Assembly (NCBI GenBank): GCA_009392915.1
Contig: CP045477.1
Span: 192,001-256,000, forward strand
Reading direction: 5' to 3'
From: Candidatus Forterrea multitransposorum CG_2015-17_Forterrea_25_41
Lineage (GTDB): Archaea > Iainarchaeota > Iainarchaeia > Iainarchaeales > CSSED10-239
Length of the DNA stretch: 64,000 nt
A program made the translations under genes and the position numbers. The stretch's first letter is position 1. Every line of letters starts with the position of its first letter. This document shows positions 40,318-63,900 of the stretch, one piece after another. The notes beneath the pieces are model-generated. The model did not search any database and was not told the origin of the DNA. It was given only the letters and a program-made list of their open reading frames with translations.

Positions 40318-40483
40318 TTTTTCCCCTTAAAAATCATTTCCTTTAAAAAACCCCTTTAATATAGAAAAACTGTAAAAAACCCCTTTTTTACATTTTTTCA
40401 AAATTTATACCTTTTTTCCTTCTTTTAAAAATAAGTTTTTGTCTTTTATTTTAGTCATTTAATTTCCCTCTAAAAAACTTTAA

Positions 40484-40690: not shown

Positions 40691-40857
40691 TTTTTAACTT
40701 AAAAAACTAAAAAAACTATTTTTTTTAATTTTACAACTCTTTTTAAATATTTTGTATATATAGATTTAATACTAATGAAATTGCTTTTTAACCTATTAAG
40801 CAATCAATTTAGCTACATTATAATTTTATATTAAAAAGAAGGAGTTGACTTAAAAAT

Positions 40858-41193
40858 ATGAAACTAGAAAAAATTGGTGCATTTGCTTTTCTTGGTGGTA
40901 TCTTAATTTCAATTATTTTTGGACTTATTTACAATATTAACCATCCAGTATGGCTTTCAACTGTTTTAATTATTTTAGGATTAGTTGTTGGTCTTTTAAA
41001 CATTGAAGATAAAAACATATCTCTTTTCTTAATTGCATCCATTACATTTATTGCAACTAGTAACTCAATAAATGCAATACCTGTTATAGGAGATGTATTA
41101 AGAGGAGTTTTAGTTAATTTAGTATACTTTGTAGCTCCAGCTGCATTAGTAGTTTCAATTGTTGCAATTATTAGAGTTTCAAACTCTAAATAA
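40858..41193 (+). CDS. Small 3-TM membrane protein
   Basis: Good SD (AAGGAG, 40842..40847). Three hydrophobic helices. Preferred over the antisense ORF 40929..41228. Confidence 0.55.
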   Translation: MKLEKIGAFAFLGGILISIIFGLIYNINHPVWLSTVLIILGLVVGLLNIEDKNISLFLIASITFIATSNSINAIPVIGDVLRGVLVNLVYFVAPAALVVSIVAIIRVSNSK

Positions 41194-41362: not shown

Positions 41363-44300
41363 ATGGTTAAAGATAAAAATAATTTAGGCTCAAATGAAAA
41401 CAATGAAAATAAACAAAATATTTTTTCAAGATTTTATAATTATCTTGAAGATAAATATTCTTCTTTATCAAACTGGCTTACAGAAAAAGGAATACCATTA
41501 AATAATTTAAATAATTATTTAGAGGAAAAAGGACTTCCTGCTTTTGCAATAGTTGCATCTATTTTATTATTATTAATCTTTATAATTGTTTTCTTAATTA
41601 TCTTTTCTTTTTCCAGTCAATCAACATTAATTTTTTCTGTTAAAGATTATTCTGGACTTTCAATCAATGATGCTTTTTTAAAAATTACAAATAGTTCAGG
41701 TAAGGAAATCTTTTCAGGAACTGTAAATGATACTGATGTTAAAAAATTAAAATTAAAATTAGGAGAATTATATTCTTTTAAATCAACTAAAGATGGATAT
41801 CCTGATTTTTCAAAATCAATAACTATTACTGATAAAGATCAAAAAGTACAAATTACTTTTTCAGAATCAATTGAGTATGGTATATTAAGAATAAAATTAA
41901 TAGATAGAGATAATAAAGGAATAATTACTTCAGGAACTGCGATCGCAAGATATTCAATTAATAATGCTCCTGAGTCTACAGAAAACATTGTAAATATTGC
42001 AAATGAACATTTTATTACTTTAGAAGTTCCAATGAATAAAGATATTGAACTTTTAGTTAGTGCAGATGGTTATGAAGATTTTAAAGAAACAAATTTTAGA
42101 ATAACTTTAGAAAATCAAGAAAAAGTAATTGAAATGGATATTTCTTCTTTATCTTTTGAAGGTAAAAGTCAAGTTACTTTTGTTGTTTTAGATACAGAAC
42201 AAAATCCAATTGATGGTGCTTTAGTAAGCATATATAATCTTGGAGATGAATTATTAGATTCAAAAAATACAATTGATGGAAGAGCTTTATCTTTTATTGA
42301 TAGTGGTTCTACAATATCTTATAAAGTTGAAAAAGAAGGTTATAGAACATTTGTAAGTGATCCTGAAGTTTCTTTTAGAATTACAAAATCTGAAATAACT
42401 TATAATGTTACTTTAGAAGAGGGTGGAAATTTTTTAGATGTGTTTGTAAAATCTGGTTCTAATTTTTTAGCTCTTGGAGATGTTGCAATTACTGTTTATG
42501 ATTTAAATAATAATATTATTAATTCTGGAAATACAGATGATTTAGGAAATTTAAAATTAACTGGTCTTTCTGATAAAGCACCAATTGTTGTAACTGCTTG
42601 TAAAGAAGATTTCCTTTGTGAAAATTTAACAGTAGATCTTTTAGAAAAAAGTTCAGTTGAGTTTACTTTAGAAAGAATAGATGTAACAAATAGTGCTATT
42701 CTGTCTGTTTTTGTTGTTGATGAAAAAAATTTACCGATCTCAAAAGCTTTTATAAAAATCTATCAATTACTTGAAGATGATAAAGAAGTTCCATACAACA
42801 CATCTCTTCAAACTGATCTTACAGGTTCTCTTTCAATACCTCTAAGAGTTGGAGATTCTTTTATAGTTTATTCATTAGTTGGAGAAGTTCAATATTTTGA
42901 AGAAATTACAATTGATGCTTTAAGAGAAAATAAAATAATTTTTGTAATGGATAATGCTTCTAAAATAATTAAATTAGATCTTTATGATGAAAATGGTTTT
43001 AAACTTACTTCAGGTTCTTTACTTGTAAAAACAAAAGATGGAACTGTTCTTTTTGATGGTAATTTATCTGAAACTGATCAAATAAGTTTTATTTCAGAAG
43101 GCTATAAAGATTTATATGCTGAATACACAGATGTTAATGGTAATAAATCTTCAATTAATTTTAATGCTGATGAATCTGAGTCAGATGGATATATAAGACT
43201 TGATTTTAATAAAGAAGTTAATTTAACAGATTATCCTGTAATTGAGTTTTCAGGAATTGTAGATTCTAAAGGAGTTAAATCAAATTTTGTAACAATAGGT
43301 AAAGAATATTATTTAATTTTTGATGTTTTATTCCCAGAAAATACTTATAAAGGACAAGTACATATTAGAGCTGGTGATGATACTCAAGTTGATGTTGAAG
43401 AAATGAGTTATGGTATAACTGGTTTTTCTGCAATGGATATTTATGATTTTAAATATGGTACAACATATAATAGTTCTCCTCTTCCAGGTTTAATGAATAT
43501 TGATCTTTTAAATGAAGGTTCTTCTCAAGTTTTAAATAAATGGCTTGAACTTAAATGGAATAGTGATCTTCCTTTAGGTAATAAACAAATCAAAGTAAAA
43601 ATAAATGTTATAGATGATTCTTATTCAAAATTAACTTTTAAATATAGAACTTTATTTGAAGAAAATAAATTATACTATAGAGATCCAGTTGACTCTTTAT
43701 TAAACCAAAGTTATTCTTCATCTCAAAAAGGTGCTTTATATGCAGATACAAAAGAAGTAAATATTGATGTTTATAATGTTCCTTTAGATTGTGAAGGTTC
43801 TCAATGTTTGTCATATACTTTTATTGATTCAAAAGGAAATGAATTTTCAAAAAATGATTTCTATGCTGTAAGAGATGAAACTTATTTTTTAAAAGTTAGT
43901 CTTTATTCTTTAGATAATAAACAATTAGATCTTTTAGCAGAAACTTCAAAAAGTTTCCCTTTAATTTCATTTGGTTCTTTTTCAGATAATCTTTATCAAA
44001 ATGAAATAATAAATGATAATTCTTTATTTGAAATTTCAAGAGATGGTTTTTTACTTTCTGAAAATTCTTTAAAAAATATTTATCTTTCATTTATCTCAAA
44101 AGATATTGGTGCTGCATATATTGATCTTAAAGCAACAGATGTTATTTTAGGAAATGAAATTTTAAACAATAGATTAAGTTTTAATGTTTATGATAAAAAA
44201 GAAATGAATGTTTTAGTTTCTCCAAGTAATTATGTTGATTATGGATCAAATTTTACTGTTGATGTTTTAGATTCAGTTTCTCTTGAACCTATTACAGATG

Positions 44301-47300
44301 CTTTTATTTCTTTTTATGATGTTAGAGATACTTTTATTTCTTCTTTAAAACCAAGTAATTCAAATGGAAGGAATGGAAAATATACTATTACAAATAATTT
44401 TAATACTTCAACTGTTAAAATGGTAGTTGAAAGATATGGTTATCTTCCTTATGAAACTGAAATTTATATTATTGATAATACTTTATTAAATGCAATTCCT
44501 TCAGAAATAATTTTTAATTTAGGTCTTGACCAAACAGCATCAACTTCAAATTTTAGTTTAGAAAACTTAGGTAATTATCAAGCAACAAATGTAAGGTTTG
44601 GAGAACCTATTTGGATTGAAGGTAGTGCTGGTATTTATCTTGAAGGAAGAGGTAATCCAATAATTAATAAAAACTCAACTCAAAATTATCAATTGTTACT
44701 TACAACAGAAAATGATGTTGAACTTAAAACAGCATATGCACATCTTCCAGTATATGCATCTGTAGGTCCTAGAGAAGTTACAAAAATATTAAATGTTAGA
44801 ATAAATAAAGGTTTAATGTTAAATGAATGTGTTGAAATTACTCCTTCTGAAGTTTCTTCTTTTGTTGGACTAAATGTTTCTTCAAATTATGCAGATCCTT
44901 TTAATACTCCTTTTGCAGATTATGATTATACTTCAAATACTTCAAATAATCCTATGCTTGCACCTTCTCAAAGTTATTCTAATTATGAAGAATATTTAAA
45001 TTCAAGTGGATATAACATTACTGATTCAACAGATAATGGTTATACTTACACAGATTCTAAAAATTATACTTATCATGCAACTTCTCCTGCTCTTAATTCT
45101 CAAATTACTGAAAACACAACTTATTTTACAATTAAAAATAATTGTTCTCAAGCTATAACTTTTAATCCTCAAGCAGTTTTAACTTCTTCATCATCAAATA
45201 ATAATTTAGAAGTTTCTCTTGCAAACATAACTGTTCTTCCAGGAGAAGAAAAAGTTTATGATGTTATTTTAAAAAATTCATCTGAACTTAAAAGAAAAAC
45301 AACATATACCTATAATGTTTTATGGCATAATAATTATTATTCAATAGCTCCTTCAGTTTTAAATGTTGATCTTTTAGATTTAAGTAGAGCTTTATGGGTT
45401 ATGCCACAACAAATAAATATTCCAATCTCTCAAGTACATCCTCAACAAGCTGCTGAAAATTATACTAGATTTTTTATTAAAAATATAGGTGCTGTTCCAA
45501 TAACTGATATACAAATAAGTCAGTATCCAAAAATGGTGTCTTCTAATATTAAAATAACTGAATATCCAAGACAAGTATCTGTTTTAGAACCAGGAAAAAC
45601 AATTCCTGTTGATTTAAAATTTTCAGTAAATATTAATAAATCTACATTAGATAATGCCTTTATACAAGTAACTGGTAAAGCTGTTGGTATTAGTGAACCA
45701 ATTACTTCAACAACACAATTAGTGTTTTCAATTTCTTCTCCAAATTGCTTAAAAGTAAGTAATAAAAATATTAATTTTGATTTAGAAGTTGGGGAAACAA
45801 GAGCAAGAAATATTACAATTACAAATCAATGTTCTGAACCTGTTACAATAGTTGGAATTGATAAAAAACAACAAGGATATTATCAAGCATATGGGGATAA
45901 TTCTTTTAGAATAACTCCTGCTTCTGGTAATCCAATAATTCCTGTTAACATGTCAAATTCTTATAGAATAGAGTTTACTGCAAATTCTTTAGGTGGTTCT
46001 CCAAAAACACCAATGATACTTCAAGGTAGATTAATGAATTCAGGTAATCCTGTAACTTCAGAAGAGGTTTTAGTTTCAATAACTATAGATGATATAATGG
46101 TTGGAGAAGAAGCTGAAAGAAATATTTCTATTTTATCTTCTCTTCCTTCTTGTGAAGATCCACAAAATATTAATTCATATAATAGACCATTAATTTCAAT
46201 TAAAGATTGTTCTGAAACTTCAGGATATTGTGATGGAGAATCTTCAGCTGAATTAATTTTAAAAAAAGTAAATGAACTTCAAAATGAAATTAAACAATTT
46301 TCTGCACAAACACAATCAAAAGTAATTGATACTGGTTGTACTCTTCAAGATGCATATAGTGGTTTTTGTAAAATATCTGAACTTGGTGGAGGAATTGATC
46401 CTGTTGAGTTTTCTTTCTTTATGCAAAATGATAATGTTACACCTGATTTAATTAAATCTATTTTAACAAAATCAAATTATTCTTTTAAAAATTATTTTGT
46501 TGAAACAAATATTTTTAATAAAGAAATTAAAACTATAAATCAATATTCTTCTTATGGGGTATATGCTGGTGGAAATAAAATATTTGTATCTCCTCACCTA
46601 TCAGGTTGTGGAAAATATACAGTAGAGATTGATGGTTATGTTGCTGCAAGTCCAGATTATATTTATCCTGAAAGAGCATATTATTATATTAATGTTGTAG
46701 AAAAAGATACTAACACTATTCATTGTGAGAAAAATATTGTAAATTATTTAAATTATCTTCCATGGGATCTTTCTTTTAATAAAAACCAAAGAGCAGGAAC
46801 TTGGCTTACTTTATTTACTGGTGATGAAAATTTATCAAAAGCTTTAATTAAAAGTGTGGGTAAGTTTAAGTCAGATGAAATTGATTTAAGATATGTTTAT
46901 AATAAAGATGTTTTATCTACAAGAAATAGTACTTTAAATGTTTCAACTGGAGAGATTTCTGAAAATAAAGAAGCTCTTGCAAAAATTTCTTTTAATGATA
47001 CTTCTTTAAGAAAAAGCTCTTCTCCAGAACAAATAGATATTACTTTAAATTCTCTTTATAATTCTCCTGAAGGTAAAACTTCTGAGTATGCTGTTAAAGA
47101 TTTTTCAAAAGTAATTTCTTCAATGATTTCAGATAATGATTATTCTGCAAAAGTTTGTATTTCTGAAGATAAAACATATATGCTTGTTTTAGATGTTATT
47201 TCAGCAGGAGATTTAACTTTTGTTGATAAAGAAGTAAGTCTTCCTTTAAAGGATGGAGCTTCATGTTCTTTATTAAAAGTTAAATCATCAGTTCCTGAAA

Positions 47301-49378: not shown

Positions 49379-49487
49379 TTCTTTTCTTTTTTTATTTTTT
49401 TAGTAAAAAGAAATATATAAAAATATAAACATCTTATTTATATTAGTTAATATAATATATTAAAGATATAATTGGTGTTATCTAATC

Positions 49488-51167: not shown

Positions 51168-51297
51168 ATTCACTTTTTAATGTTAATAAAAAGGTATTTA
51201 AATGTATAAGCACTATAATTATATAACAAATAACATAGTTTTTAAAAGATTATGTTATAAAAATATAATATATTATAATATATACGAGAGATGATTT

Positions 51298-54200
51298 ATG
51301 GGTCTTAGATCTTTTTACTTTAAACAAGAAGAAAAATATTTTAATTTTCTAGACAGGATGGAGAAAAAAGGAATTAATCTATACAAAATAATAGATCCTT
51401 TAGAAAAGAATGGTATACCTACTTTTTTAGTATTTAATATATTTATTCTACTTTTAATTTTATTTTTAGTTTATTTATTTGTTGGACAAACTCCATTAAC
51501 TGATGAAAACTACACTTTAACTTTTGTAAATTCTCAAGACCAGCCAATCTCAAATCAAGCAATTGAAATTCTTCTTAATAACAATAGAAAGATTTTAACA
51601 ACTAATGAATTTGGAATTTCAGAAATTACTGATGTTGAAATTAAATCTTATGATTTAGAAATAAGTAGTGAAAAGTATACTCTTGAAAATCCATTAACTT
51701 TAGATTTTAAAGAAAACACTTCTCATAAAATATTTTTAAAATCAAAAACTTCTGTTTTATCAAAAACTATATATTTTAAAACAAATAATGAATTATATAA
51801 TTCTCCATTAACAATTTCAAATATTTCTTGTTCAAATAATTCTCTTTATACAAAAAATAATCTTCAAACAAATGATGGTTCTTTAACTTTAGATGATATT
51901 CCTACAGATTGTGGATATTTAGAAGTTGCTATTGAATCTTCAACAATTAATGCTGTTGGTTCTTTAGAAGTTTCAGAAGACTCTCCTTCTGGAGATATTG
52001 ATTTAAGTTTTGAAGGTGTTGAAACTGGAAGTGCAAAAATAATTATTCTTGATAAAGATTTAAAAGTGCCTATTCAAAACATAAGTATTTCTATTCTTAA
52101 TAATCAAAGTCAAATTGTAACTTCTTCAATAACAAATGCAAATGGTATAGCATCTTTTGAAGAAATAAATGTTGGAACATATAATCTTTTAATCTATGAT
52201 GAAGAAGAAAGATACAAGCCAGTAACTGAAAATGAAAGTTTAGAACTTGTAGTATATGATTCTGTTTTAGAAGAAAAAGAAGTTCTTTTAGAAAAAGCAT
52301 TCATTGGTAAATTAAATTATAAAATTATTGATACTCAAAGTAAAGAAGCTATTGAAAATGTAGCTGTAACAATATACAAAGGAAATGATATTTTAAAAAC
52401 AATTAATTCAAATAAAGAAGGCGATGTTTCTTTTGGTGTTGAAGAAAATATTTCTTATAAAGTTTTATTTAATCATCCTAATTATATAATAAGAACTGAA
52501 AATAATCAAAGAATAAGTGAATCTATTAAACAAATTGCCTTAACTCCAATAACAAATGAAAATTTAAGAAGTTTAGTTATTACTGTTGTTGATGATTTTG
52601 CAAAACCTGTTGATTTTGCAACCATAAGATTATGGGATGATACTGAAGATATTATTCTTAGAACAATAACAGCTGATATTTATGGTAAAGCTGTTTTTAC
52701 AAATTTAGATTTAGGTAAAGAATATAGACTTGATGCAACTAAAGATCAATTTACTTCAAATCCTACAAATCCTTTTAGAATCTCAGAACAAGAAATAACT
52801 GAAGAAACTATAAAGATGAGTATAGGTGAAGGAACTTTTAATATTAATTTAGTTTCTGAGTATGGAGAGTTCTATCAAGGAAATGTATATGTTTATGATG
52901 CAACAAATGATACTTTAATGCAAGATAAAACCACAACAACAAACCAAGATGGTTTTACAATAATAAAGATTAGAGCTGATAAACAAATTTATTTTGTTAT
53001 TGATAATTTAGATTCTAAATTTATAACTCCAAAGTATTCAACAAATGCAAATGAAATAAATACTTTAAATTTTACAATTCCAGGAACTGTTGGGCAAACA
53101 TCTGGTATTGAATTTTTAGGTTTTTATAATGCTGAAGGAGAAAAAATAAATTCAGTGGCTGCAGGTATGCAAGTTACTGCTAAATATTTATTAAATGTTA
53201 CAAAAGAATATTCTAAAGCAGTTGCACATATAAGAACTGGAGAAGTTCCAAGTCCTTTATGTTCTTCAAACACATATAATGTTTTAGAAGATTTAATTTT
53301 TATAAAAGATGTACGTTATGCAAAATCTGATAAGATCGGTTCATTAACTTTTACTCCATGTAATGGAGAAGGTATTGATTTTTCAAATAAAACTTTAAGA
53401 AATGCAAAATGGTTTAATTTAACTTTAAATAATCCAATGCAAGGAAGTTATTTAATTGAAGCAGATGTTGTTGTTTTAGATACAGCTTTTGCAAATCAAG
53501 CTTTAAACTATAGAGCAGAGTTTTATCAAGGTTCAAGTATTATAAGATCACCTGTTGATTCTTCTTATAGTTCTTCAACAAGTAAACAAAATTTATATGC
53601 TCAAGCAAAACAAGTTCAATTATTTTTAGGAACTCAAAATCAATGTACTTCACTTATGTGTTATGCATTTATTATGACAAATACACAAAATAATTTATCT
53701 AGAAATATAATTGATAGTTATAAAGCTAAATTAAATAATGATTATAGACTTTCATTTAGTTTAAATGTTTTAGATGGAAAAATTGCACCAAACTCAATGC
53801 TTGTAATCTCTTCAGGTAGTTCTGTTGATTTAGATGGTTATTCTATTACTTCAGGAACTGGTTCTCTTTTAGTTGGAGAGGATTATGATGGAATTGATTT
53901 AGGTTCTTTAGTTTCAAATGATTTAATAACTGGAGAGCTTGCTTTTAAAGTAATAGATGATGTTTCTGATGTTTTAGACTTTTCAATAGTTTCTAATGGA
54001 GAAGTTGTATTCTCTAAAAAAATATATCTTGAAATTGATCCTGCAAAAGAAATGTTTGTAGAGTTTGTTCCAAGAAAAATTGTTCCTTTTGTTTCAAATG
54101 ATTTACTTGTTGTTGTAACTGATGATTCTAATAATTTTATTTCAAATGCAATTGTTGAACTTTCAATTAATGATAGAAGTTTAACTGTAGGTTCAACTAA

Positions 54201-57200
54201 TCAAGAAGGATTATTTGGTCATGTAATTCCAGCAACTGATCTTGGAGATGTTTTAAAGATTGTTGTAAAGAAAGATGATTATAAAACAGTTAAAACAGAA
54301 ATTGTAATTGATGATAAATTAATCACAACAATTCCTGAAAAAATTGATTTAACAATTGATTCTTCAAAATCAATAAGAGAAGTTTATAATTTTAGTTTAT
54401 ATAATGAATCTTATGTTCCTTTAACAATTGTTTCTGCATCAGCATTTACTGATAATGAATTTGTTGATCTTGATTTAGGTATTGAAGAAAATATCATAAA
54501 TGGTGTTTCTCAAAATGATATTTCTCTAACAGCAACATTAACAGATAAAGGTATTAATCTTTATAATCAACAAACAATTAATACAGAAGTTGCAATTAAA
54601 ATTAAAAGTGAAGAAATGAATAAAACTTGGGTTATTACAGTTCCATTAACTGTTAGAATAGTTTTAGGAAATTCTCTTGATTCTCTTGAATGTTTAAAAG
54701 TTCTACCTCTTGAAGGAACAATTAGAGCTAAATCTCAAGAAACAAAAACTTTAGATTTTACTTTAGAAAACACTTGTACTTCAAAGAATGTTTCTGTTGA
54801 TTTAGGAACTATTAATGCAATGGTTGATTGGGGTAATGAATCTGAAACTGGACTTTTATCAATTGTTGTTTCTGGTAAAGAATATATTTTAGAAAACTTA
54901 ACTGAAACTGAAATATTATCAACTCTTTTAAAGAAATCAAAAACAACTTTACAATTAAAGTTTAAAGCGCATAAAATAGTTTCAGATGTTAAAATACCAA
55001 TTATTTATTTTACTTCAAAGAAAGGAAATATTAATGGTGTTGATGAAGTTAAAACAAGACTTCCCTTAAAAACAATTATTAATGATTATTCAGAATGTAT
55101 TGAGATCCCAAGAGAGACAATTCCTGCTCTTGCATGTAATTGGTATTCTGGACTTAATAACTATGGTAATTATTATGGTGGAGTAAACCAAGGAGGAGCT
55201 TTCAATAATCCTTATTATGGTGGAAATAATTTTAATGCAACATATAATCCTAATAACCAATTTAATTCTAGAAATTACTATCAACAAGGTTCTGGTTATG
55301 TTACACAACAACAAGGTGTTTTTAATCCAAATTATAATTTAGTGGGACAAACAAATTATACAGGAAATCAAAATTCTGTGTTTAACCCTTATAATTTCCC
55401 TTCCTCACAATATCAAAATACTTTTGGAAATTATGATAGTTATAATTTTACATCAGGTTATCCTCAAGGTAACTATGGAAACATGGGTTTTACAAATAAC
55501 ATGAATTGTCCAACAAGACCATTTTATATTAAAAATAATTGTTCTGAAGCTGTTGATATTAAACTTGATTCAATATATGGTTTAACAATTGCAACAGATA
55601 AAGAATTTACAATAGAACCTGGAGATACAGAAGAGATTAGTGTTTTAGGTGGAGAGTCTATGGGTACTTTTAAAATACCTGTAAATGCAAAAGCATCTCT
55701 TGCATCTAATGAAAATTATTCAACAATTGGAGATGTTTTATTTTCTTTAACATTACCAATTAGTTTTATGTCTTCAAATTGTATACAAGTAACTCCTCAA
55801 AAATTAGATTTTTCAAATATTATTGATCCTAACTATCAACTTGTAAAAGTAATTAATACTTGCTTTGCACAAGGATACAGAATAGTTGAAGTTAATTATC
55901 TTGATTTAATTTCACTTGACTTTGATGGTGTATCTTTCTTAAATGTAGGAGATATGCAAGGAAGAATTCAACCAATTAAAGTTGATACTTTAACAAATAC
56001 AACTACAAATGAACCAATGGAAGTTTGGGAAATTGCATTAAGAAGAAATCCTGAAATTGAAAATACTAAGTCTGTAAAAGAGTATATGAATAAATATTCT
56101 GATTATTCTTTAGCTGCTGGTGTTATTTCTTCATTTAGAAAAATATTAATTGATGTTGAAGACGCAGTTAACTTAAAGTTTTCTTTACAAGTTGGACTTC
56201 AACCACCAACAGGACAAGCTTCACTTATCTATAATAATATAGGTATGGAACTTAAGGATAATTTCCAATGGTTAATTTTAGATAATCCTGATAATATAGG
56301 TCTTTTAAAAGATTTATTTGGTGATGAAGCTATTAGTGATGAAGAAATTTCATTTATTGATACTTCTGTAAAATTAACATATACCCTTGATCCTAATAAC
56401 AATGCAGTTATTATTAATGTTCCTGAAGGAGAACTTGCTGCAGATAAATTCACACAAATTGATCAAGACCCTACAAGTAAAAGATGTTTCTATGGATATG
56501 TTAAAGATTTCCCTATAACTGGTATTGTAGATACTTCATATATACAAAACTCTGGTAAATATTATTTAAATAATAAATATGATCCATTAGATGTAAGTCT
56601 TGAATTTATTACTAGAAATAAAAATATCTTTAAATTATGTTTTGAAAGACCAGTTGAATCATTTGATAATATTTTAGCTACAAATGATAATTACAATATC
56701 TTAGATTTATTTAAAACAAGTAAAGATTCTCTTACAAACCAAAACTTTGAGATTTGGAGAATTTTAGATACTACAAATAAAGGTAAATACCAAGGTAGTA
56801 CTTTAATTGGTGTAAAAGCTGATGTTTCAACAAAAGAAGTTGGCTCTAAAGAAGAGGGTGACTCTGGAAAAACTGATCCTTCTCAAACAACAGATGATTC
56901 TTTAGTTTGTCTTGCTCCTGACCTTTCAACAAATCTTGGACATACAGGTTCTAATGTTTATTCTCAATATGGATTTGATAAAATATTACTTGATTACTTA
57001 CCAGAAGATATTACAGATTCTTCTTGTGAAGATTATTTCTGTGATCAAGAACAATTCTATAATTTCTTAACAAAGAAAGCAGATAAATTAAAAGAAGTTA
57101 CTTCAAATAGTAATTATATAAATATTAATGGTATTTATTTTGAAAAAGAAAATAATACTATTAAAGAATCAAAAGTAAAAGTAGATCTTTGTGCAAACGG

Positions 57201-58269
57201 CGTTTGTGATGGCTTTGATGTTTCTGGTAAAGAAACTTTAAATGATTATATAAATCAAGCAAATAAAGTTTTAAATGCTGTTCCAGCAGACTTAAAGAAA
57301 ATAACAATCATTAAGACTAAAGGTTTAACTACTAATGGAAATAAAATTGTAACAATTGGTGATTATCAATATACAACTGTTGATTATTTCTTAGAAAATT
57401 ATGATTCTTTTGAGAACAAAGCAATAGTTTATGCAAACATGGATGTATACTTTGGATCTTCTCCTCAAGTATTCAGTTCTAACCTTAAGAAATTTTCTGG
57501 TAGTTCTGAAGATTTAAATAAAAAAATCTTAGCAAACTTTAATAATACTTTAACAAGTAACTATACAATTGAGTATGCTGAGGCTGTAAATATTTCAAAA
57601 CCAGGAACTTATACAACAGTTATTTCTCTTGAAAATATAGATTCTCAAAATAAAAGAAAAATAAATTTAACAATAGGTTCTAAAGTTTCTGAGATTAGTG
57701 AAGAATATAGTAAAAATATTTTATTTACATATCCAATTAATCCTGAATATACAATGAAAGAAAAGAGTGATAAATATAATGCTCCTTTCATTAAGAATAA
57801 AAATTATACTTTAATTGATTATCCTTCAGAAATTATACAAGATGGATATATCTTTAAGTTTGAGGATATGGCAAATTATGATTTTATTGATTCAAGACCA
57901 TTTTATTTCAATAAACCATATAGTTTTAAGATTATTGAAACTAATGAAAATAATACAGAGCTTGATTTAATAGAAAATAAAGCAAGTTTATTCTTACTTA
58001 AAGATAGAACAAATAAAAAGATTAGTTTGTATTCAAAACCACAAATTACAAGTCAAGATACAAAGAATAACACTGTCTTTTTAAAAACAACTACTAATAA
58101 TAATTATATGATATATAATTTACAAATGAATAATGTTTTACCAAAATTAACATATTCATCAATGAAAGATGTATTTAATGAAATTAAAAACGAGAATGTA
58201 TGTTTCAATATAACTGAAGGAACAACTCCTGAACTTATGTTGTGGCATAATCCTGAAAAATTTAAATGA
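51298..58269 (+). CDS. Giant surface protein C (2323 aa), paralog of A and D
   Basis: An uninterrupted 6972-nt ORF. N-terminus: MGLRSFYFKQEEKYFNFLDRMEKKGINLYKIIDPLEKNGIPTFLVFNIFILLLILFLVYLF. It has a beta-sandwich array (KDDYKTVKTEIVI and others), an N/Q/Y/G-rich low-complexity segment, and IKNNCSEAVDIKLD, ENTCTSKNVSVDLG and INTCFAQGYRIVEV module starts. Confidence 0.9.
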   Translation: MGLRSFYFKQEEKYFNFLDRMEKKGINLYKIIDPLEKNGIPTFLVFNIFILLLILFLVYLFVGQTPLTDENYTLTFVNSQDQPISNQAIEILLNNNRKILTTNEFGISEITDVEIKSYDLEISSEKYTLENPLTLDFKENTSHKIFLKSKTSVLSKTIYFKTNNELYNSPLTISNISCSNNSLYTKNNLQTNDGSLTLDDIPTDCGYLEVAIESSTINAVGSLEVSEDSPSGDIDLSFEGVETGSAKIIILDKDLKVPIQNISISILNNQSQIVTSSITNANGIASFEEINVGTYNLLIYDEEERYKPVTENESLELVVYDSVLEEKEVLLEKAFIGKLNYKIIDTQSKEAIENVAVTIYKGNDILKTINSNKEGDVSFGVEENISYKVLFNHPNYIIRTENNQRISESIKQIALTPITNENLRSLVITVVDDFAKPVDFATIRLWDDTEDIILRTITADIYGKAVFTNLDLGKEYRLDATKDQFTSNPTNPFRISEQEITEETIKMSIGEGTFNINLVSEYGEFYQGNVYVYDATNDTLMQDKTTTTNQDGFTIIKIRADKQIYFVIDNLDSKFITPKYSTNANEINTLNFTIPGTVGQTSGIEFLGFYNAEGEKINSVAAGMQVTAKYLLNVTKEYSKAVAHIRTGEVPSPLCSSNTYNVLEDLIFIKDVRYAKSDKIGSLTFTPCNGEGIDFSNKTLRNAKWFNLTLNNPMQGSYLIEADVVVLDTAFANQALNYRAEFYQGSSIIRSPVDSSYSSSTSKQNLYAQAKQVQLFLGTQNQCTSLMCYAFIMTNTQNNLSRNIIDSYKAKLNNDYRLSFSLNVLDGKIAPNSMLVISSGSSVDLDGYSITSGTGSLLVGEDYDGIDLGSLVSNDLITGELAFKVIDDVSDVLDFSIVSNGEVVFSKKIYLEIDPAKEMFVEFVPRKIVPFVSNDLLVVVTDDSNNFISNAIVELSINDRSLTVGSTNQEGLFGHVIPATDLGDVLKIVVKKDDYKTVKTEIVIDDKLITTIPEKIDLTIDSSKSIREVYNFSLYNESYVPLTIVSASAFTDNEFVDLDLGIEENIINGVSQNDISLTATLTDKGINLYNQQTINTEVAIKIKSEEMNKTWVITVPLTVRIVLGNSLDSLECLKVLPLEGTIRAKSQETKTLDFTLENTCTSKNVSVDLGTINAMVDWGNESETGLLSIVVSGKEYILENLTETEILSTLLKKSKTTLQLKFKAHKIVSDVKIPIIYFTSKKGNINGVDEVKTRLPLKTIINDYSECIEIPRETIPALACNWYSGLNNYGNYYGGVNQGGAFNNPYYGGNNFNATYNPNNQFNSRNYYQQGSGYVTQQQGVFNPNYNLVGQTNYTGNQNSVFNPYNFPSSQYQNTFGNYDSYNFTSGYPQGNYGNMGFTNNMNCPTRPFYIKNNCSEAVDIKLDSIYGLTIATDKEFTIEPGDTEEISVLGGESMGTFKIPVNAKASLASNENYSTIGDVLFSLTLPISFMSSNCIQVTPQKLDFSNIIDPNYQLVKVINTCFAQGYRIVEVNYLDLISLDFDGVSFLNVGDMQGRIQPIKVDTLTNTTTNEPMEVWEIALRRNPEIENTKSVKEYMNKYSDYSLAAGVISSFRKILIDVEDAVNLKFSLQVGLQPPTGQASLIYNNIGMELKDNFQWLILDNPDNIGLLKDLFGDEAISDEEISFIDTSVKLTYTLDPNNNAVIINVPEGELAADKFTQIDQDPTSKRCFYGYVKDFPITGIVDTSYIQNSGKYYLNNKYDPLDVSLEFITRNKNIFKLCFERPVESFDNILATNDNYNILDLFKTSKDSLTNQNFEIWRILDTTNKGKYQGSTLIGVKADVSTKEVGSKEEGDSGKTDPSQTTDDSLVCLAPDLSTNLGHTGSNVYSQYGFDKILLDYLPEDITDSSCEDYFCDQEQFYNFLTKKADKLKEVTSNSNYININGIYFEKENNTIKESKVKVDLCANGVCDGFDVSGKETLNDYINQANKVLNAVPADLKKITIIKTKGLTTNGNKIVTIGDYQYTTVDYFLENYDSFENKAIVYANMDVYFGSSPQVFSSNLKKFSGSSEDLNKKILANFNNTLTSNYTIEYAEAVNISKPGTYTTVISLENIDSQNKRKINLTIGSKVSEISEEYSKNILFTYPINPEYTMKEKSDKYNAPFIKNKNYTLIDYPSEIIQDGYIFKFEDMANYDFIDSRPFYFNKPYSFKIIETNENNTELDLIENKASLFLLKDRTNKKISLYSKPQITSQDTKNNTVFLKTTTNNNYMIYNLQMNNVLPKLTYSSMKDVFNEIKNENVCFNITEGTTPELMLWHNPEKFK

Positions 58270-58281
58270 TTTTTATAAACT

Positions 58282-58288
58282 AAGAGGT
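58282..58288 (+). promoter_or_regulatory. Shine-Dalgarno-like AAGAGGT 8 nt upstream of the giant gene D start
   Basis: There is only a 27-nt gap between the stop of C (58269) and the start of D (58297), which implies co-transcription. Confidence 0.45.
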
Positions 58289-58296
58289 TATGAAAT

Positions 58297-61200
58297 ATGG
58301 GACTTAAAAAGTTATACTATAATTTAGAAGATAAATATTACAGTTTTGTTGAAAGAACAGGACTTTATAAGGTTACTGATAAAATAGATAAGGTTATGCC
58401 TTCTTTTATTTTATTTATTCTTTTAATTGTAATATTAATATCTGGACTTGTCTTTTTACTACTTCCTTCTTCTCAAGTAAAAGACGGTGTTGATATTCAG
58501 TTTGAAGTGATTGATGCTGAGTCTGGTGCTCTTCTAGAGGATGTAACTTTAATGCTTACAACAAGTAAAGATATTTCTTCTATAACAACTTCTTCTGAAG
58601 GACTTACAGATTATATTAAAATTCCTAAAAATACCTCTTATCAAATAGATATTGTTGAAGATTCTTATGAAAATTTCAATGATATTTTTTCAACAAAAGA
58701 GTCTTCTGAAACTATAACTATAGCTTTAGAACCTTCTGGTGTTGAACCATTAACTGTTTCATATTCTTTTGATGTTGTTGATTCTAAAACTACTTTAATT
58801 GTAAATTCTACTGGTGCAATTTCTTTTAAATGTATGAACGGATCTTTAGCACCTAATCCAGTTAGAGTTTTAAATGGTAATGTTTCAGTTGAGGCATCTC
58901 CTGAATGTAATCTTGCAATTGATTCAATTTCATTTAATGGTTATTTATCAAAAGATAATATTCCAATAAATGCAATGACTGGAACAATTTCTTTAGAACC
59001 AACAGAAATTAATTTCCAAGATGATACTTATAAAGTTGTAATAAATGTTAAAAATTCATCTAATGAAGCTTTATCAAATATTAAGGTAACTTTTACAAAT
59101 GATTATGGTATAATTGATTCTAAAACAACTTCAAGTAATGGAAATGTAACTTTTGAAGATTTAGATTCTGGAGAATATATTGTAAATTTTTCTGATCAAA
59201 GAGCAACTCCTATATACAGTACTCTTTCAAGAACATATTATATTTCATCTGATATTACAAAATCAGAAACTTTATCTTCTGATGTTTCTGGATATATTTT
59301 TGTAAGAATAATTGGTGAAAATTCAGGTGTTTTAGAAGGAGCTGAAGTAAATTTAAAAACTTCAGAAAATAATACTATTGAAACTAAATTATCTGATGTT
59401 GATGGTGAAGTAATTTTTACAGTTTCTGAAATTAAAGATTATAATGTAGTTGTTGATGCTGAAGGTTATTTAATAACTAGAAAACTTGTTGAAGCAAAAG
59501 AAGTAATGCCAACAAACCCTATTGTTATTCCTTTACCTTTAATAACACCTGCAACTTTAGCTTCTTTAAAGGTACAAGTTACAACTTGGGAAGGAAAGCC
59601 TTTTAAGTTTGCAAAAGTTGTTTTGTATGATGCAGAAACTGGTTTTTTAACAGACTATAAACCAGTTTTAACAAACTATGATGGAAATGCTACAATAAAT
59701 ATTACTTCTGGAAAATATATTGCAAAAGCTATTAAAGGAAGTGTTACTGGTGAGTCATCAGAGTTTGAGTTTAATGTTAAATATCCTGAACTTTCTGGTA
59801 CTGTAACTATTCCAATGGGAATTAGTGAAGGTGTATTGAATGTTTCAGTTGTTGATAATGATGGTAATCCTGTTCCATATGCCATAATAGATTTATATGA
59901 TAGATATAGTTACTATAATTTCACACCAGCAGTTCCTTTAAAAAAGACAACTACAGATTCACAAGGAAATATTGAAATGGTTGTGGATGCTGATATTGAA
60001 TATTATGTTGTTGCAACTGATTTAGATGATGTTTATGGAAAAACACAATCTAGATTTGTTTATGTTGGTGCAGATTCTCAAGAGTCTCTAGAAGTTACTC
60101 TTTATCCAAGAAATAGTTCTACAACAAAACCAAGAATGGTATTTAATGGAATATATAAAGATGACTTAAAAGTTGAAGATAACTTAAAGGCTGGAGAAGA
60201 TTACAAAATCAGATATAATCTTTTAGTTCCTCAAAATAGAACTGGAGATGATGTTTTTGAAGAAATTGGTTTAATGTTAAGAACTGGTTCAACTTCAATG
60301 ATTGAAAATGATTCTTTATTTATTAAATATCTAGATGTTCCATATTTAGATAGTATACAAAAATATACACAATTTAATCTTAATGCACCTCATGAAAATG
60401 AAGGTTATTATGATGAAGATAGTTTAACTGAAGGAAACTTTAAATGGGCAAAAGCAACATTAAAAGAAGGTCCTATTAATTATAATGGTTCTTTTGGTTT
60501 CTATAATGCTTATGAAATTGAAGCAATAATTTCTGTTAAAGACACAGCTGTCTTTGGAGAAGAACTTAAAATATTTAGTTTAGGTTATGGTCTTAATGAA
60601 GATGATGAATATGAAACATATAATTCATATTTAGGACCTAATGAAGAAATTGAATATTATGATGTTTATGATCAAATAACATTTGGTGTTGGAAATGAAC
60701 TTTTCTGTTCTGATGAGTTTTGTTTCTCTTCAACAATTGTTGATGTTTCAGAAGACTTAAGATATGATGTTACAAATAATTTTGCAGCTATGCCAAATAA
60801 AGATTATAAGTATAGTTTTACATTAATTAATAATTCTCTTGAAACTAAATATTTATCTTCTAGATTTATTTTAGAAAATATTGATGAAGGTTTAGATTTT
60901 AAAAATATAAAAATCTATAAACCAGATGGAGAAGTATACACCCAAACAAATACTAATGAAAATGAATTTGATATACCAATAACTTCTTTAGTTTCAAAAC
61001 AAAAAGTAACTGGAGAAATTATTTTTATGCCTAAACTTAAAGGTACAAGAGAGTTATCTATTAAATTTATTTCTGATCAAAAAATAAAATTCATTAATCA
61101 ATTATTCATAGATGTTCTTTCAGATAAAACATTTGAAGTAGAGATTGAACCTTCAATAATTCCTTCTGCAAAGAGTTTCTCACTTGTGATTAATGCTGTT

Positions 61201-63900
61201 GATTCTAAAACAAAAATACCTGTTGAAAATAGAACAATAACAATTAAAGATAAATTTAAAGATACTATTAAAGGACCAATTTCAGTATCTGATTCAGTTG
61301 ATGAAATTGAAATAGGTAATATTCCTGCTCAAGGACCTGGAGATACAATCTATGTTTATATAACAGCTCCTGAGTATGAAACTGTTGTTGAAGAATTAAA
61401 AGCAACTGATAAATTATATAATATTATTCCAAGAAATTTAGCATATTCATTAAATATATTTGATGAAAAACAAAAAACTGAAAACTTTACAATTAATAAT
61501 TTATCTCCAATTGATTTAACTATTGATGAAATGGTTGTAAAAGGAAATGGTCTTGAAGTTGTTGATCTTCACAGAATAAATAATACTTTACTTAATAGTG
61601 TTGGTGTTATTATAAAAGGATTTGATTCAGTTTCAGATCTGCCAGATAACACAGACGCTTCAAAAGAGATTCCATTAACTATTAGTTTAAATCCAAGAGC
61701 TGAAACAATTAGAGAAGTTGTAGATTTATCTTCAACACTTCATATTGTTCTTTCAAATGGAGAAAATCAATGGAAGAGTGAGATTCCAATTAAAATAAAT
61801 ATTGGCTTTGATGGTATGATTGATAATTCTAATTGTTTAACTTTATCTCAAGATCAATGGAATGCTGTTGCTTTAAATAAAGCTGTTGATACAACATTTA
61901 TGGTTTCAAATAAATGTTCTGTAAATGGAACAAATATGCCTCTTTCAAATGGTCTTGAAGCAAGAGTATTATTTGAATCTAATCCTCAAGGTAAATTTAT
62001 TATAAGTCTTGATAATAGATCAATTGAACTTACTCATGGTAACTATAGAAGATTACTTGATACTTTTGATAGAGATAGATCACTTCCAGTAATTTTAAAA
62101 TATGAACCTGCTGGAAGAATGAAAGGAACTGTTAAAGGTACAATTGAGTTTAGATCTGTAAATAACACTGGAAGTGGAGAACAAGAATTAGTTTCATCAA
62201 TTGCATTTGAAATTGATGTTACAAATTTAAAAGATTGTGTTGTGTTTTCAAAGAGTTCTTTAAATGTTGGACAAGTTGATGACGAATTCACAATTGAAAA
62301 TGTTGCTTGTCCTGCAGACATGACTTACAGACTTTCATGTGACAATTGTCAAGGTTTAGTTGTTGAACCAAGAAATAATATTGATGTTCCTGCAAGTGGA
62401 AGTAGTGAAAATATTGTTGTAAGAAACATGGGAGCTACACCTGGTGCTTATGTTTTAAATGTATTTTCAAGTATGAAAGAATTTAGAGGTTCTGAAGAAC
62501 TTATAAAAAGAATAAAAGTATATGTAAGACCAACAGATTATTGTGTTGATCTTGAAAGATATGAGTTTGATCTTTATAGATCTGAATATTCTGAAAGTAC
62601 TGGTCTTGAACTTAATGCAACTTCATATGATACAACAAATTTAATTAATCTTTGTTATGGTCAAGAAGTTGAAGGTACTTTTAGTGTTAAAGAAGATGCT
62701 AAATGGAAGATGGCTTTAACTTCATTTTTAAGAGAAGGTTTGTATACTGGTGGTATTTCTGCTATCTTGCAAGGAAAGTTATTTGCATCAGCTGAAGATA
62801 AGGCAAATAAATTACTTGAAAGTGATGCTATAAAGAATAGCACTGATGAAAATGTAAAATCAGCTGCTGCTGCATTAGCTGCTGCTGTTGCTACTGGTAA
62901 TAAGAAAGATATTAAAGAGAAGACAACTGCTCTTGAGAATGCTGTGAATGATTCTGTTAATCCAACTTCTTCAGAAGCTACACCTGGGGAAACTTCTACT
63001 GGAAATCAAACTTCTTTGATTGATAAATCTAACCAATTAGTTACTGATGTTGAAAAATATTTAGAAGATTACAAGGTTTCTGGAAAAAATATTTATCAAG
63101 AAGTTGGTGACACAAATATAAAAAAATTAATCAATGATTTAAAAGATGCAATAAAAACTAATAAAATTGAAAAAATAGAACCTGCTTATAATGAGCTAAA
63201 ATATGTTTTTGAAGAATTTAAAAATACAAATTCTCCTGTTACTACTCCATCTGCTGGAAGTACTCCACCCGCTCAAACTACTTCCCCCGCTCAAACTTCT
63301 GATACTGATAGTTTAACTGTAAATGATGATGTTGATAATACTTGGAAAAATAGTGTTAATTTAGATATATATAGAGAGTTTGTTTTAGATAATCCTAATA
63401 AACTTGATTTTGAATCTAAATCCTATAAAGCAGAAGATTATTCTAATTGGGATACTTTCAGAGAAAAATACGATAAAAGTGTTATTACACTTAATAAAAA
63501 AATAGAAGATGAATTATTAGTGTCTGCAACAAGTCAAAATGATTTTTCTGAAAAAATAAGAACTGCAAAAGATGAATGGAAAAAAAATGTTAGAATTTTA
63601 ATTGAAGATTTAAAAGCAAAGGAGGAGACATTAACTCCTAATTTAGATGTTCAACAACAAAGACTTCAAATTGCAAGTCAAGCACAAACAGGTGCTAGTT
63701 GTAGTAAAGACGAATTAATCCCTGGAACACAAGAAAATTTATTTAATATTATTGAACCTAATGATAATGGATTTGTATATGTTTGTACAGGAAATGGTCA
63801 TTATAGAGCTTGTGATTTAAATACAAATAAATGGACTCCAATAGCAACTAATTACCCAATTTATGATCATGCAGTAGATACATGTATTGAAATAAATTAA
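58297..63900 (+). CDS. Giant surface protein D (1867 aa), paralog of A and C
   Basis: An uninterrupted 5604-nt ORF. N-terminus: MGLKKLYYNLEDKYYSFVERTGLYKVTDKIDKVMPSFILFILLIVILISGLVFLL. It has a beta-sandwich array (AEGYLITRKLVE, APEYETVVEEL) and VSNKCSVNGTNMPL and ENVACPADMTYRLSCDNC modules. The C-terminal region is Ala/Ser/Thr/Pro-rich and coiled-coil-like. Confidence 0.9.
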   Translation: MGLKKLYYNLEDKYYSFVERTGLYKVTDKIDKVMPSFILFILLIVILISGLVFLLLPSSQVKDGVDIQFEVIDAESGALLEDVTLMLTTSKDISSITTSSEGLTDYIKIPKNTSYQIDIVEDSYENFNDIFSTKESSETITIALEPSGVEPLTVSYSFDVVDSKTTLIVNSTGAISFKCMNGSLAPNPVRVLNGNVSVEASPECNLAIDSISFNGYLSKDNIPINAMTGTISLEPTEINFQDDTYKVVINVKNSSNEALSNIKVTFTNDYGIIDSKTTSSNGNVTFEDLDSGEYIVNFSDQRATPIYSTLSRTYYISSDITKSETLSSDVSGYIFVRIIGENSGVLEGAEVNLKTSENNTIETKLSDVDGEVIFTVSEIKDYNVVVDAEGYLITRKLVEAKEVMPTNPIVIPLPLITPATLASLKVQVTTWEGKPFKFAKVVLYDAETGFLTDYKPVLTNYDGNATINITSGKYIAKAIKGSVTGESSEFEFNVKYPELSGTVTIPMGISEGVLNVSVVDNDGNPVPYAIIDLYDRYSYYNFTPAVPLKKTTTDSQGNIEMVVDADIEYYVVATDLDDVYGKTQSRFVYVGADSQESLEVTLYPRNSSTTKPRMVFNGIYKDDLKVEDNLKAGEDYKIRYNLLVPQNRTGDDVFEEIGLMLRTGSTSMIENDSLFIKYLDVPYLDSIQKYTQFNLNAPHENEGYYDEDSLTEGNFKWAKATLKEGPINYNGSFGFYNAYEIEAIISVKDTAVFGEELKIFSLGYGLNEDDEYETYNSYLGPNEEIEYYDVYDQITFGVGNELFCSDEFCFSSTIVDVSEDLRYDVTNNFAAMPNKDYKYSFTLINNSLETKYLSSRFILENIDEGLDFKNIKIYKPDGEVYTQTNTNENEFDIPITSLVSKQKVTGEIIFMPKLKGTRELSIKFISDQKIKFINQLFIDVLSDKTFEVEIEPSIIPSAKSFSLVINAVDSKTKIPVENRTITIKDKFKDTIKGPISVSDSVDEIEIGNIPAQGPGDTIYVYITAPEYETVVEELKATDKLYNIIPRNLAYSLNIFDEKQKTENFTINNLSPIDLTIDEMVVKGNGLEVVDLHRINNTLLNSVGVIIKGFDSVSDLPDNTDASKEIPLTISLNPRAETIREVVDLSSTLHIVLSNGENQWKSEIPIKINIGFDGMIDNSNCLTLSQDQWNAVALNKAVDTTFMVSNKCSVNGTNMPLSNGLEARVLFESNPQGKFIISLDNRSIELTHGNYRRLLDTFDRDRSLPVILKYEPAGRMKGTVKGTIEFRSVNNTGSGEQELVSSIAFEIDVTNLKDCVVFSKSSLNVGQVDDEFTIENVACPADMTYRLSCDNCQGLVVEPRNNIDVPASGSSENIVVRNMGATPGAYVLNVFSSMKEFRGSEELIKRIKVYVRPTDYCVDLERYEFDLYRSEYSESTGLELNATSYDTTNLINLCYGQEVEGTFSVKEDAKWKMALTSFLREGLYTGGISAILQGKLFASAEDKANKLLESDAIKNSTDENVKSAAAALAAAVATGNKKDIKEKTTALENAVNDSVNPTSSEATPGETSTGNQTSLIDKSNQLVTDVEKYLEDYKVSGKNIYQEVGDTNIKKLINDLKDAIKTNKIEKIEPAYNELKYVFEEFKNTNSPVTTPSAGSTPPAQTTSPAQTSDTDSLTVNDDVDNTWKNSVNLDIYREFVLDNPNKLDFESKSYKAEDYSNWDTFREKYDKSVITLNKKIEDELLVSATSQNDFSEKIRTAKDEWKKNVRILIEDLKAKEETLTPNLDVQQQRLQIASQAQTGASCSKDELIPGTQENLFNIIEPNDNGFVYVCTGNGHYRACDLNTNKWTPIATNYPIYDHAVDTCIEIN

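Follow-up and report, generated by a model that had tools for sequence, protein, structure and literature searches.

Giant surface proteins with immunoglobulin (Ig)-like repeats are already known as a general kind in small-genome prokaryotes. A related logic is found in the RTX giant adhesins LapA, MpIBP and SiiE, in which an N-terminal anchor is followed by a tandem Ig-like extender and a C-terminal ligand-binding region, and in the stalks of archaeal S-layers, of which SlaB and tetrabrachion are anchored C-terminally. In nanohaloarchaea, the SPEARE giants (e.g. SVXNc_0300) are products of single genes, 5,000-9,400 amino acids (aa) long, that include a VirB4/TraG-like ATPase domain and have an ATPase gene next to them (PMC10266531), and the giant membrane proteins of Vampirococcus, a predator that itself belongs to the candidate phyla radiation, offer functional analogues (PMC8080830). 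In Micrarchaeota, SLP_Mh is a PF05123 S-layer protein of ~101 kDa with S-layer domains (bioRxiv 10.1101/2021.04.28.441871). The subject here is a cluster of co-directional genes encoding giant proteins (A, C, D, E and F) and a pilin-like partner (P), found in a stretch of 64,000 nucleotides (nt) of Candidatus Forterrea multitransposorum, a small-genome DPANN archaeon of the Iainarchaeota (contig CP045477.1, positions 192,001 to 256,000; the whole stretch is called the window). It is read, with somewhat more confidence than doubt, as a vertically inherited Iainarchaeota envelope locus for a multi-component cell-surface fibre layer made of the giants and P; the giant family probably builds the outer fibre coat or contact surface of the cell. 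To our knowledge the Iainarchaeota, formerly Diapherotrites, have no cultured representative. No description of their envelope or of this giant family was located in the literature, and the family, its N-terminal tail, the six-to-eight-gene locus, the split between D and E and the fold of P appear to be undescribed.

An earlier note on this DNA, made from the letters alone, had described three giant open reading frames (ORFs) with a pilin-like protein between the first two. The three are intact and on one strand, with the coordinates and lengths first given, gaps of 109, 130 and 27 nt in the A-P-C-D run and a total of 20,592 nt. That four-gene unit proved incomplete, as two conserved genes precede it and E and F lie past the window end, and the count of paralogous giants rises from three to four or five. 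The genes of the locus within the window are:

39853-40317, + strand: candidate winged helix-turn-helix (wHTH) regulator, 154 aa, the first conserved gene of the locus
40858-41193, + strand: multi-pass membrane protein, 111 aa, directly upstream of A
41363-49378, + strand: giant A, 2671 aa
49488-51167, + strand: P, 559 aa
51298-58269, + strand: giant C, 2323 aa
58297-63900, + strand: giant D, 1867 aa
63938-64000, + strand: start of E (964 aa), a gene cut by the window end; Sec-type signal peptide, then an E-type β-sandwich head

Giant F (2466 aa) follows E beyond the window end, and A to F span ~33 kb, ~4% of the longest contig (839,632 bp). The conserved locus runs wHTH regulator, small membrane protein, A, P, C, D, E, F. 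The A-P-C-D(-E-F) order recurs in ~30 independent loci from Iainarchaeota genomes and metagenome contigs; look-ups around C orthologs and D found A-P-C-D-E-F preserved in loci L001-L018 and L080-L103. Across loci the orthologs measure ~2600-3100 aa (A), ~560-605 (P), ~2300-2470 (C), ~1600-1950 (D), ~960-1020 (E) and ~2430-2500 (F). A metagenome scan with a P profile gave 24 loci, reaching down to ~31% identity; in all those with visible flanks, P has A on one side and C on the other. Independent contigs exclude an assembly chimera: D is indexed in 81 assembly blocks (contigs of 0.2-1 Mb in 50 of the 81), the L005 contig is identical to the window across the overlap, and between L005 and a near-identical contig of a second sample there are 2 single-nucleotide polymorphisms (SNPs) in 25.6 kb. 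C is 100% identical to the NCBI entry 'hypothetical protein GW835_02520 [archaeon]'. The G+C content is ~25% throughout the window and the cluster shows no compositional break; the 27-nt spacer between C and D holds a Shine-Dalgarno (SD)-like GAGG, with an SD-like motif also between D and E. Other genes of the window are archaeal, among them a form III RuBisCO, NurA, an XPD-type helicase, a phosphoenolpyruvate synthase and an intein-bearing ATPase.

The giants share a common chassis: a ~45-aa tail, taken as cytoplasmic, one transmembrane (TM) helix, ~5-6 β-sandwich units and a conserved central region. Hydropathy shows one strongly hydrophobic segment per giant, near the N-terminus (A 55-93, C 37-68, D 29-62), and the first description of these as N-terminally anchored, very long proteins with β-sandwich-rich ectodomains is supported. 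Their paralogy lies well beyond chance. BLASTP relates C to D (E-value 4e-33, 22.7% identity over ~1300 aa); with A as query it matched neither C nor D, and profiles were required. A hidden Markov model (HMM) of C and D scores 78 bits on A (residues 23-1072), against a maximum of 4.1 bits in 300 composition-preserving block shuffles of A, and hhalign with six-sequence ortholog profiles gives probabilities of 99.9% for A-C, 99.7% for A-D and 100% for C-D. The claimed collinearity holds for C and D, and in A as far as about residue 1075-1160 but not beyond. The landmarks are present and collinear: HIRAG/HIRTG/MLRTG at 667/644/660 in A, C and D, a C-x4-C pair at 810/783/804 and NF[ST][LI]xN at 1063/1031/1063, together with the N-terminal TM helix. 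A further landmark, [IV]xNxCS, exists but falls mostly outside the significantly aligned part.

An internal-repeat HMM places 5-7 units of ~90 aa in each giant, mostly between residues ~60 and ~600 and one more at ~930-1045. The β-sandwich assignment of these units stands for C and D, where CarboxypepD_reg (PF13620) reaches 73.9 and 62.8 bits (Pfam cut-off 32.3); F scores 54 bits. SpaA (PF17802) is also above its cut-off of 23.1 in C (30.0 bits) and D (30.8), and Big_1 is a further Pfam match among the giants. Two other families that the note had suggested, PF08308 and PF13715, gave zero matches, and A passes no Pfam cut-off (bMG3 24.3, below 34.9). Despite these sub-threshold scores, A is homologous by profile to C, D and F over the β-sandwich region. 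The individual giants are laid out as follows (protein positions, all + strand):

Giant A, after ~1075: a unique C-terminal part of ~1600 aa, Cys-rich, with a poorly conserved coiled-coil-like stretch at ~2200-2600
Giant C: β-sandwich array at 64-505 and 927-1012; central region with HIRTG at 644 and C-x4-C at 783
Giant C, head: a diverged E-type head, with YYCDQEQ at 1914 and VCF...LWHNP at the C-terminus
Giant D: β-sandwich units at 238-601 and 954-1048 and the central region; N-terminal half of a split giant

Weak coiled-coil-type matches in A lie at 2420-2540, and F has the same N-terminal tail, TM helix and N-module as the other giants. Full-length orthologs are 30-58% identical for A and 30-63% for C, and the conservation profile is rather even along the length. 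Sequons number 1.5-1.65 per 100 aa in the giants versus 0.2-0.8 in most cytoplasmic proteins of the window, in an N/S/T-rich composition, with no enrichment beyond that composition (z<1.1). The E-type heads (E, F and the fused giants of L009-L075) end with a Cys pair, …C[VI]…[FWY][WY]NP…25-35 aa…C[IS]xx, of which C keeps the first half; P ends W-x-C…C-[VE]-[AS] and the D of the window …C-I-E-I-N. These C-terminal Cys pairs are probably terminal disulfides. A search for DNA repeats or cassettes suited to phase variation or gene conversion found none, nor any signature of recombination or variation.

In some lineages D and E are joined in a single giant, and a profile of 14 sequences from these unsplit relatives aligns with the giants as follows:

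Fused-giant profile 1-1493 with D 1-1535, E-value 1e-172
Fused-giant profile 1601-2442 with E 46-962, E-value 6.7e-87
Fused-giant profile 13-2296 with F 2-2327, E-value 1e-110
Fused-giant profile 1-1883 with C 1-1933, E-value 1e-122
Fused-giant profile 7-1063 with A 21-1075, E-value 5e-41

Because the fused relatives align with D 1-1535 and then with E 46-962, the alignments make D and E the two halves of one ancestral giant, separated by a conserved gene fission. By the same alignments one ancestral giant with a β-sandwich head gave rise to C, to D plus E and to F, which are paralogous over their full length. Profiles of six sequences had given the giants unrelated C-terminal halves, a result overturned by the 14-sequence fused profile, which reaches ~1933 in C and the full length of F. 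As C and F align with the fused giants, 'different heads' is strictly true for A alone. C retains the start of an E-type head (YYCDQEQ, versus IYCD[AS]TQF in E) and the C-terminal VC[FV]...W.NP motif. The D/E split is conserved in the entire sub-clade that also has A and P (L001-L018). E carries a Sec-type signal peptide and no anchor, and from the alignment its signal peptide appears as a gain at the fission break. Since this is a fused-versus-split (Rosetta-stone) case, D and E would be expected to associate physically after export, and the fission predicts a specific protein-protein interface. The structural model of E is of middling quality (predicted local distance difference test, pLDDT, 66): residues ~300-965 are mostly at 70-90 and predominantly β, and the N-terminal 300 residues are unreliable. 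Across A, C, D, E and F, searches of Pfam, NCBIfam, PHROGs and PDB profiles detected no family of S-layer or RTX proteins, enzymes, toxins or secretion ATPases. In the case of P, E and the giants' heads, matches from Pfam, NCBIfam and PHROGs stayed at chance level, with no family above cut-off; profiles built from the E, A, C and P alignments and searched against PDB sequences found nothing or only coiled-coil and Ig noise.

What unites the giants most widely is the tail, which lies at the N-terminus of A and C as:

41417-41641, + strand: tail and TM helix of A, FSRFYNYLEDKY...EKGLPAF, from alignment with the tails of C, D and distant relatives and from hydropathy
51298-51492, + strand: tail and TM helix of C, MGLRSFYFKQEEKYFNFLDRMEKKGINLYKIIDPLEKNGIPTF

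The ~45 residues ahead of the TM helix are conserved phylum-wide (consensus MGLKDLYYSLEDKYYSFLDKLDEKIPLYKIIDPIDKKVPSFAL), with the pattern …Y[YF]xLEDK[YW]Y…IP.YK..DP[IL][DE]K..[IV]P[ST]F just before the helix. Members of the N-tail giant family, as defined here, are β-sandwich proteins of >1,500 aa that carry, at the extreme N-terminus, this tail and directly after it a single TM helix. In C, few stretches are as well conserved as the first 100 aa (identity 0.53 versus 0.24-0.54 elsewhere). A tail HMM scores 91-100 bits on A, C and D and on no other ORF of the window; among the ORFs of the window and 103 loci the motif is restricted to giants and marks no other kind of protein. The 'KG/IP' junction of the giants was considered as a class III cleavage site and rejected, as most members read 'K-V-V-P-S-F' there.

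A 64-position tail profile, searched against 1.84 billion cluster representatives (50% identity clusters), found 1,096 clusters at E-value<=1e-3 and 573 at E-value<=1e-10, nearly all aligned at residues 1-65. Among the matches listed that have at least 1,500 aa, 72 of 76 contain the N-module and 26 of 76 a C- or E-type head; a few tail matches share little past the first 65-100 residues. Members are named 'hypothetical protein' or bear domain-derived labels, and some come from metagenome-assembled genomes (MAGs) labelled Micrarchaeota. Judged by these matches, the giants form a large superfamily in which the tail behaves like an N-terminal module and may be a sorting signal. With an E profile scanned against GTDB at one genome per species, 140 relatives came up in 71 loci, in the form of tandem ~2300-2900-aa giants with an N-module and a C-terminal E domain. 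Most of the lineage-labelled relatives are Iainarchaeota/Diapherotrites, including the complete GW2011_AR10 genome, and many others are unclassified archaeal MAGs; the last homolog search, with a bridged alignment, missed F-type heads. Four GTDB contigs with giants (L022, L041, L051 and L069) are binned as 'Chloroflexi bacterium' or 'Thaumarchaeota archaeon', labels that probably reflect mis-binning and not occurrence outside DPANN.

P begins MLRNKKG, followed by FNLFTALISLMLLSITLVFIF, and across 20 homologs K6, G7, F8, L10, F11, T12 and A13 vary little or not at all. The motif K-K-G-F-N-L-F-T-A-L-[IV]-S-L leads into ~20 hydrophobic residues (hydropathy peak 7-33), which is the form of a class III (prepilin) signal: a short basic leader ending in Gly, then a hydrophobic stretch. 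Position +5 is Thr, not Glu. The earlier description of P as a class III-signal protein is upheld by the N-terminal motif but not by family models. The P of the window has no Pfam match at E-value<=1, N_methyl (PF07963/TIGR02532) appears in 5 of the 20 homologs with a best E-value of 0.12, and the NCBIfam ComGF N-terminus scores 16.3 bits (E-value 0.0085) against a cut-off of 80. An AlphaFold2 model from the 20-sequence alignment (pLDDT 80.4; predicted template modelling score, pTM, 0.78) has a 68-residue N-terminal helix and a globular α/β body with conserved Cys pairs, and structure comparison matched the body to no solved PDB structure. Neither the 64-kb window nor the fetched flanks contain a recognisable prepilin peptidase, pilus ATPase or platform protein. 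From its sequence, P is pilin-like at the N-terminus only, and membership of a pilin family is not established. In L006 (JGI 3300007988), a G>T SNP at position 1654 (window ~49950, P codon 155) makes a stop codon that splits P into ORFs of 154 and 364 aa; the change is a genuine loss-of-function allele or else an error of the consensus. The sole other class III-like signal in the window is in an 81-aa ORF at 33122-33367 (+), MPSKRQKG followed by MVLISVIATALFVL..., which may be a small pilin.

How might these parts form a surface layer? Giants A, C, D plus E, and F would be type II membrane proteins, held in the cytoplasmic membrane by the tail and the single TM helix. Tandem prealbumin/CarboxypepD_reg-type β-sandwiches would make a membrane-proximal stalk, followed by the central region, and a distal β-sandwich head would project tens of nanometres from the cell; each giant could accommodate roughly 20 domains of β-sandwich size. 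E would be exported via Sec and rejoin the end of D non-covalently, restoring the single polypeptide of other lineages, and P, embedded in the membrane, would be a prepilin-like accessory subunit restricted to the clade in which A also occurs. The heads would bind each other, surfaces or other cells, without being catalytic. Gene structure, paralogy, fission, synteny, family size, predicted folds and the lack of known catalytic or secretion domains are observed or computed, and upon them the physical association of the products and their binding function may be inferred. That the products very probably act together, as first proposed, is suggested by an order kept in ~30 independent loci, with P down to ~31% identity, and by D and E being a single polypeptide elsewhere. 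An extracellular location is consistent with the conserved Cys pairs, the N/S/T-rich composition and the high sequon density. A core envelope component fits because of the fixed order, the even conservation, the phylum-wide spread, the homogeneous G+C content and the lack of variation machinery. The even conservation, the lack of any recombination or variation signature and a family member that stands by itself among housekeeping genes would fit such a component at least as well as a host-specific adhesin.

Several points weigh against this fibre-layer reading. The N-in/C-out topology and the surface exposure of the giants are deduced from sequence. A family member stands alone among housekeeping genes in L106, so the giants need not form one complex, and the population variant with a stop codon in P suggests that P is perhaps dispensable; between them, the solitary member and the nonsense allele call for caution over an obligate complex. 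A small active site within a β-sandwich scaffold, or in the unmodelled heads of A, C or D, is conceivable. Finally, two loci carry two extra genes each between A and P (L083 6505-9855 and L095 4285-7983), among them peptidases, M6 (immune inhibitor A-like, E-value 2e-10) in L083 and M23 (lysostaphin-like, E-value 5e-26) in L095. These insertions hint at an offensive or degradative role that is not purely structural; bacterial walls may be the target of the M23 enzyme, a peptidoglycan endopeptidase encoded here within a surface locus of an archaeon.

The same insertions lend slight support to a different account, in which the giants are adhesins or 'grappling' fibres of an episymbiont whose heads recognise partner surfaces, with P as a pilus-like tip or base. 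The DPANN context, the small genome and the several different heads on one chassis also suit a role in host or prey contact, and attachment has been proposed for the giant Ig-rich proteins of nanohaloarchaea and Vampirococcus (PMC10266531, PMC8080830). It is nevertheless judged unlikely, if a serious possibility: no host is known for the lineage, orthologs are conserved evenly and moderately where hypervariable tips would be looked for, no repeats or cassettes provide for variation, and conservation across the phylum in many habitats is unexpected of host-specific ligands. The two accounts overlap, since a coat can also mediate contact. A more novel proposal, and a rather doubtful one, assigns the tail to an undescribed archaeal pathway for the export and anchoring of megadalton-scale surface fibres, as its dedicated sorting or docking signal, and has the A-P-C-D/E-F locus encode a new heteromeric surface organelle for cell-cell contact, with paralogous stalks bearing differing β-sandwich heads around a pilin-like subunit of novel fold, in Iainarchaeota and their Micrarchaeota-labelled relatives.

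Could P instead be the key to the locus? If P were a true prepilin, cut after Gly7 by a PibD/FlaK-type peptidase and placed at the tip or base of a filament whose assembly genes lie elsewhere in the genome, the giants would be cargo or anchors of that filament. The near-invariance of K-K-G/F-N-L-F-T-A-L and its ~20 hydrophobic residues in 20 homologs exceeds what a plain anchor needs, and the long N-terminal helix, the conserved C-terminal Cys pair and the weak but recurrent N_methyl and ComGF matches point the same way; a type IV pilus-related system is nonetheless thought quite improbable. It is very improbable that the genes are a tandem array of independent paralogs, neighbours through duplication, with each giant acting alone and P an unrelated membrane protein. 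Tandem duplication would explain the adjacency, solitary members exist and array number differs between lineages, but the A, P, C, D, E and F orthogroups hold their positions across lineages whose orthologs share only 30-40% identity, the D/E fission with adjacency kept implies co-function, and two unrelated small upstream genes are conserved along with them. Scarcely credible is a family of α2-macroglobulin-like protease traps or another defensive or enzymatic secreted family, to which weak bMG3 and MG4 matches in A, C, D and F might point: all are below the Pfam cut-offs and on generic β-sandwich units, and no thioester domain, bait region, catalytic family or A2M family was detected.

Conservation is higher in both small genes upstream of A than in the giants. 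The 154-aa gene is syntenic ~1 kb upstream of A in L080/L081, L082, L091 and L092 (52-68% identity), and its product has a winged-helix/MarR-like C-terminus (PHROGs transcriptional regulator, E-value 4.6e-6; MarR-type, 0.003) and a weak Pfam Myb-like HTH match below cut-off, by which it is a candidate regulator. The 111-aa protein, almost wholly hydrophobic, is syntenic in L082, L085, L091, L092, L100 and L101 (60-77% identity), with no Pfam match and a single weak PHROGs match of unknown function (E-value 0.0036). The spacer between these two genes holds three tandem copies of a ~76-77-nt unit (40482-40720), whose pyrimidine-rich core CCTTCTTCTTTTCTGCC recurs in 1-2 copies in the same spacer of L082, L091 and L092, where the flanking proteins are only 50-77% identical. 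Possible roles for the repeats are as an operator for the neighbouring regulator, as a terminator or as a processing element; they have no Rfam match and no significant RNA fold (z -1.3), and an Rfam scan of the window found four tRNAs only. At L104 410-916, within a distant tandem array whose giants measure 2489, 2952 and 2553 aa, the gene between two giants encodes a multi-pass membrane protein of 168 aa, which echoes the 111-aa protein in placement, with no obvious similarity between the two.

Around the locus, other genes for secreted or surface proteins occur. In three close relatives the co-directional island goes on downstream of F (L009 20522-22917, L010 20264-22893, L013 20657-23016) with a ~125-220-aa ORF and a conserved Cys-rich signal-peptide protein of at least 660-744 aa, 40% identical between L009 and L010 and without a Pfam family. 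Just upstream of the locus, two signal-peptide proteins are encoded at 37755-38174 and 38192-39550 (+); the second, of 452 aa and 10 Cys, has a repeat region that matches phage tail-fibre PHROGs (E-value 2.6e-8). Another block of large, probably surface, proteins lies on the opposite strand (155-3463, 3463-3993 and 4006-6414, -): 1102 aa with Laminin_G_3 and Gly_rich_2, a 176-aa ORF in between, and 802 aa with two Laminin_G_3 domains and a clostridial-neurotoxin-receptor-binding-like domain. The 840-aa ORF at 20402-22924 (-) has an intein (Intein_splicing and a LAGLIDADG homing endonuclease) inside a P-loop ATPase that weakly resembles Zot-type ATPases.

At ~33 kb, the locus is the largest single genetic investment visible in the region of the window; as it is conserved phylum-wide, it probably shapes the cell surface and the cell's encounters with its surroundings or partners. 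The tail can serve as a family marker, with >1,000 giant-protein clusters in public data, and P offers a confidently modelled, pilin-like protein whose predicted body is without structural precedent.

As the earlier note had supposed, no named system matches: searches of Pfam, NCBIfam, PHROGs and PDB profiles brought up no S-layer or RTX family, and none of the functional analogues named above is homologous. S-layer families of the PF05123/PF05124 type gave no match at E-value<=1 (A, P, C, D) or E-value<=0.1 (E, F). The likeness to S-layer stalks (SlaA/SlaB of Sulfolobales, tetrabrachion of Staphylothermus) is one of plan, in anchored β-sandwich or coiled-coil stalks that carry an outer protein layer and in a two-gene arrangement of an anchored and a secreted subunit, comparable to D plus E; unlike those systems, the giants are N-terminally anchored, 2-3 times larger and present as several co-occurring paralogs. 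With RTX adhesins they share the logic of an N-terminal anchor, a long Ig-like β-sandwich extender and a C-terminal binding region. RTX repeats, a type I secretion signal and a retention module are absent (no RTX/HemolysinCabind in Pfam or NCBIfam scans), the C-termini end in conserved Cys motifs, and the anchor is a TM helix in the archaeal cytoplasmic membrane. GspK-type minor pseudopilins, which are tip subunits, also lack Glu5. P resembles them in its basic leader to Gly, a hydrophobic helix running into a long α1, large size, the lack of Glu at +5 and a C-terminal Cys pair, and differs from pilins in having no significant sequence or structure match to any of them and no assembly machinery nearby. 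SPEARE giants are likewise DPANN proteins, very large, membrane-anchored and extracellular, with Ig-like or fibronectin-like repeats, a coiled-coil element and a proposed action at the cell surface. No sequence relationship to them is detectable; Pfam and NCBIfam scans of A, C, D, E and F bring up no ATPase family, and the neighbours are P, small membrane proteins and secreted proteins. Where SPEARE is one enormous gene with an ATPase, the locus described here has 4-5 paralogs of 1,900-2,700 aa with a conserved tail, in a fixed multi-gene order with a pilin-like partner.

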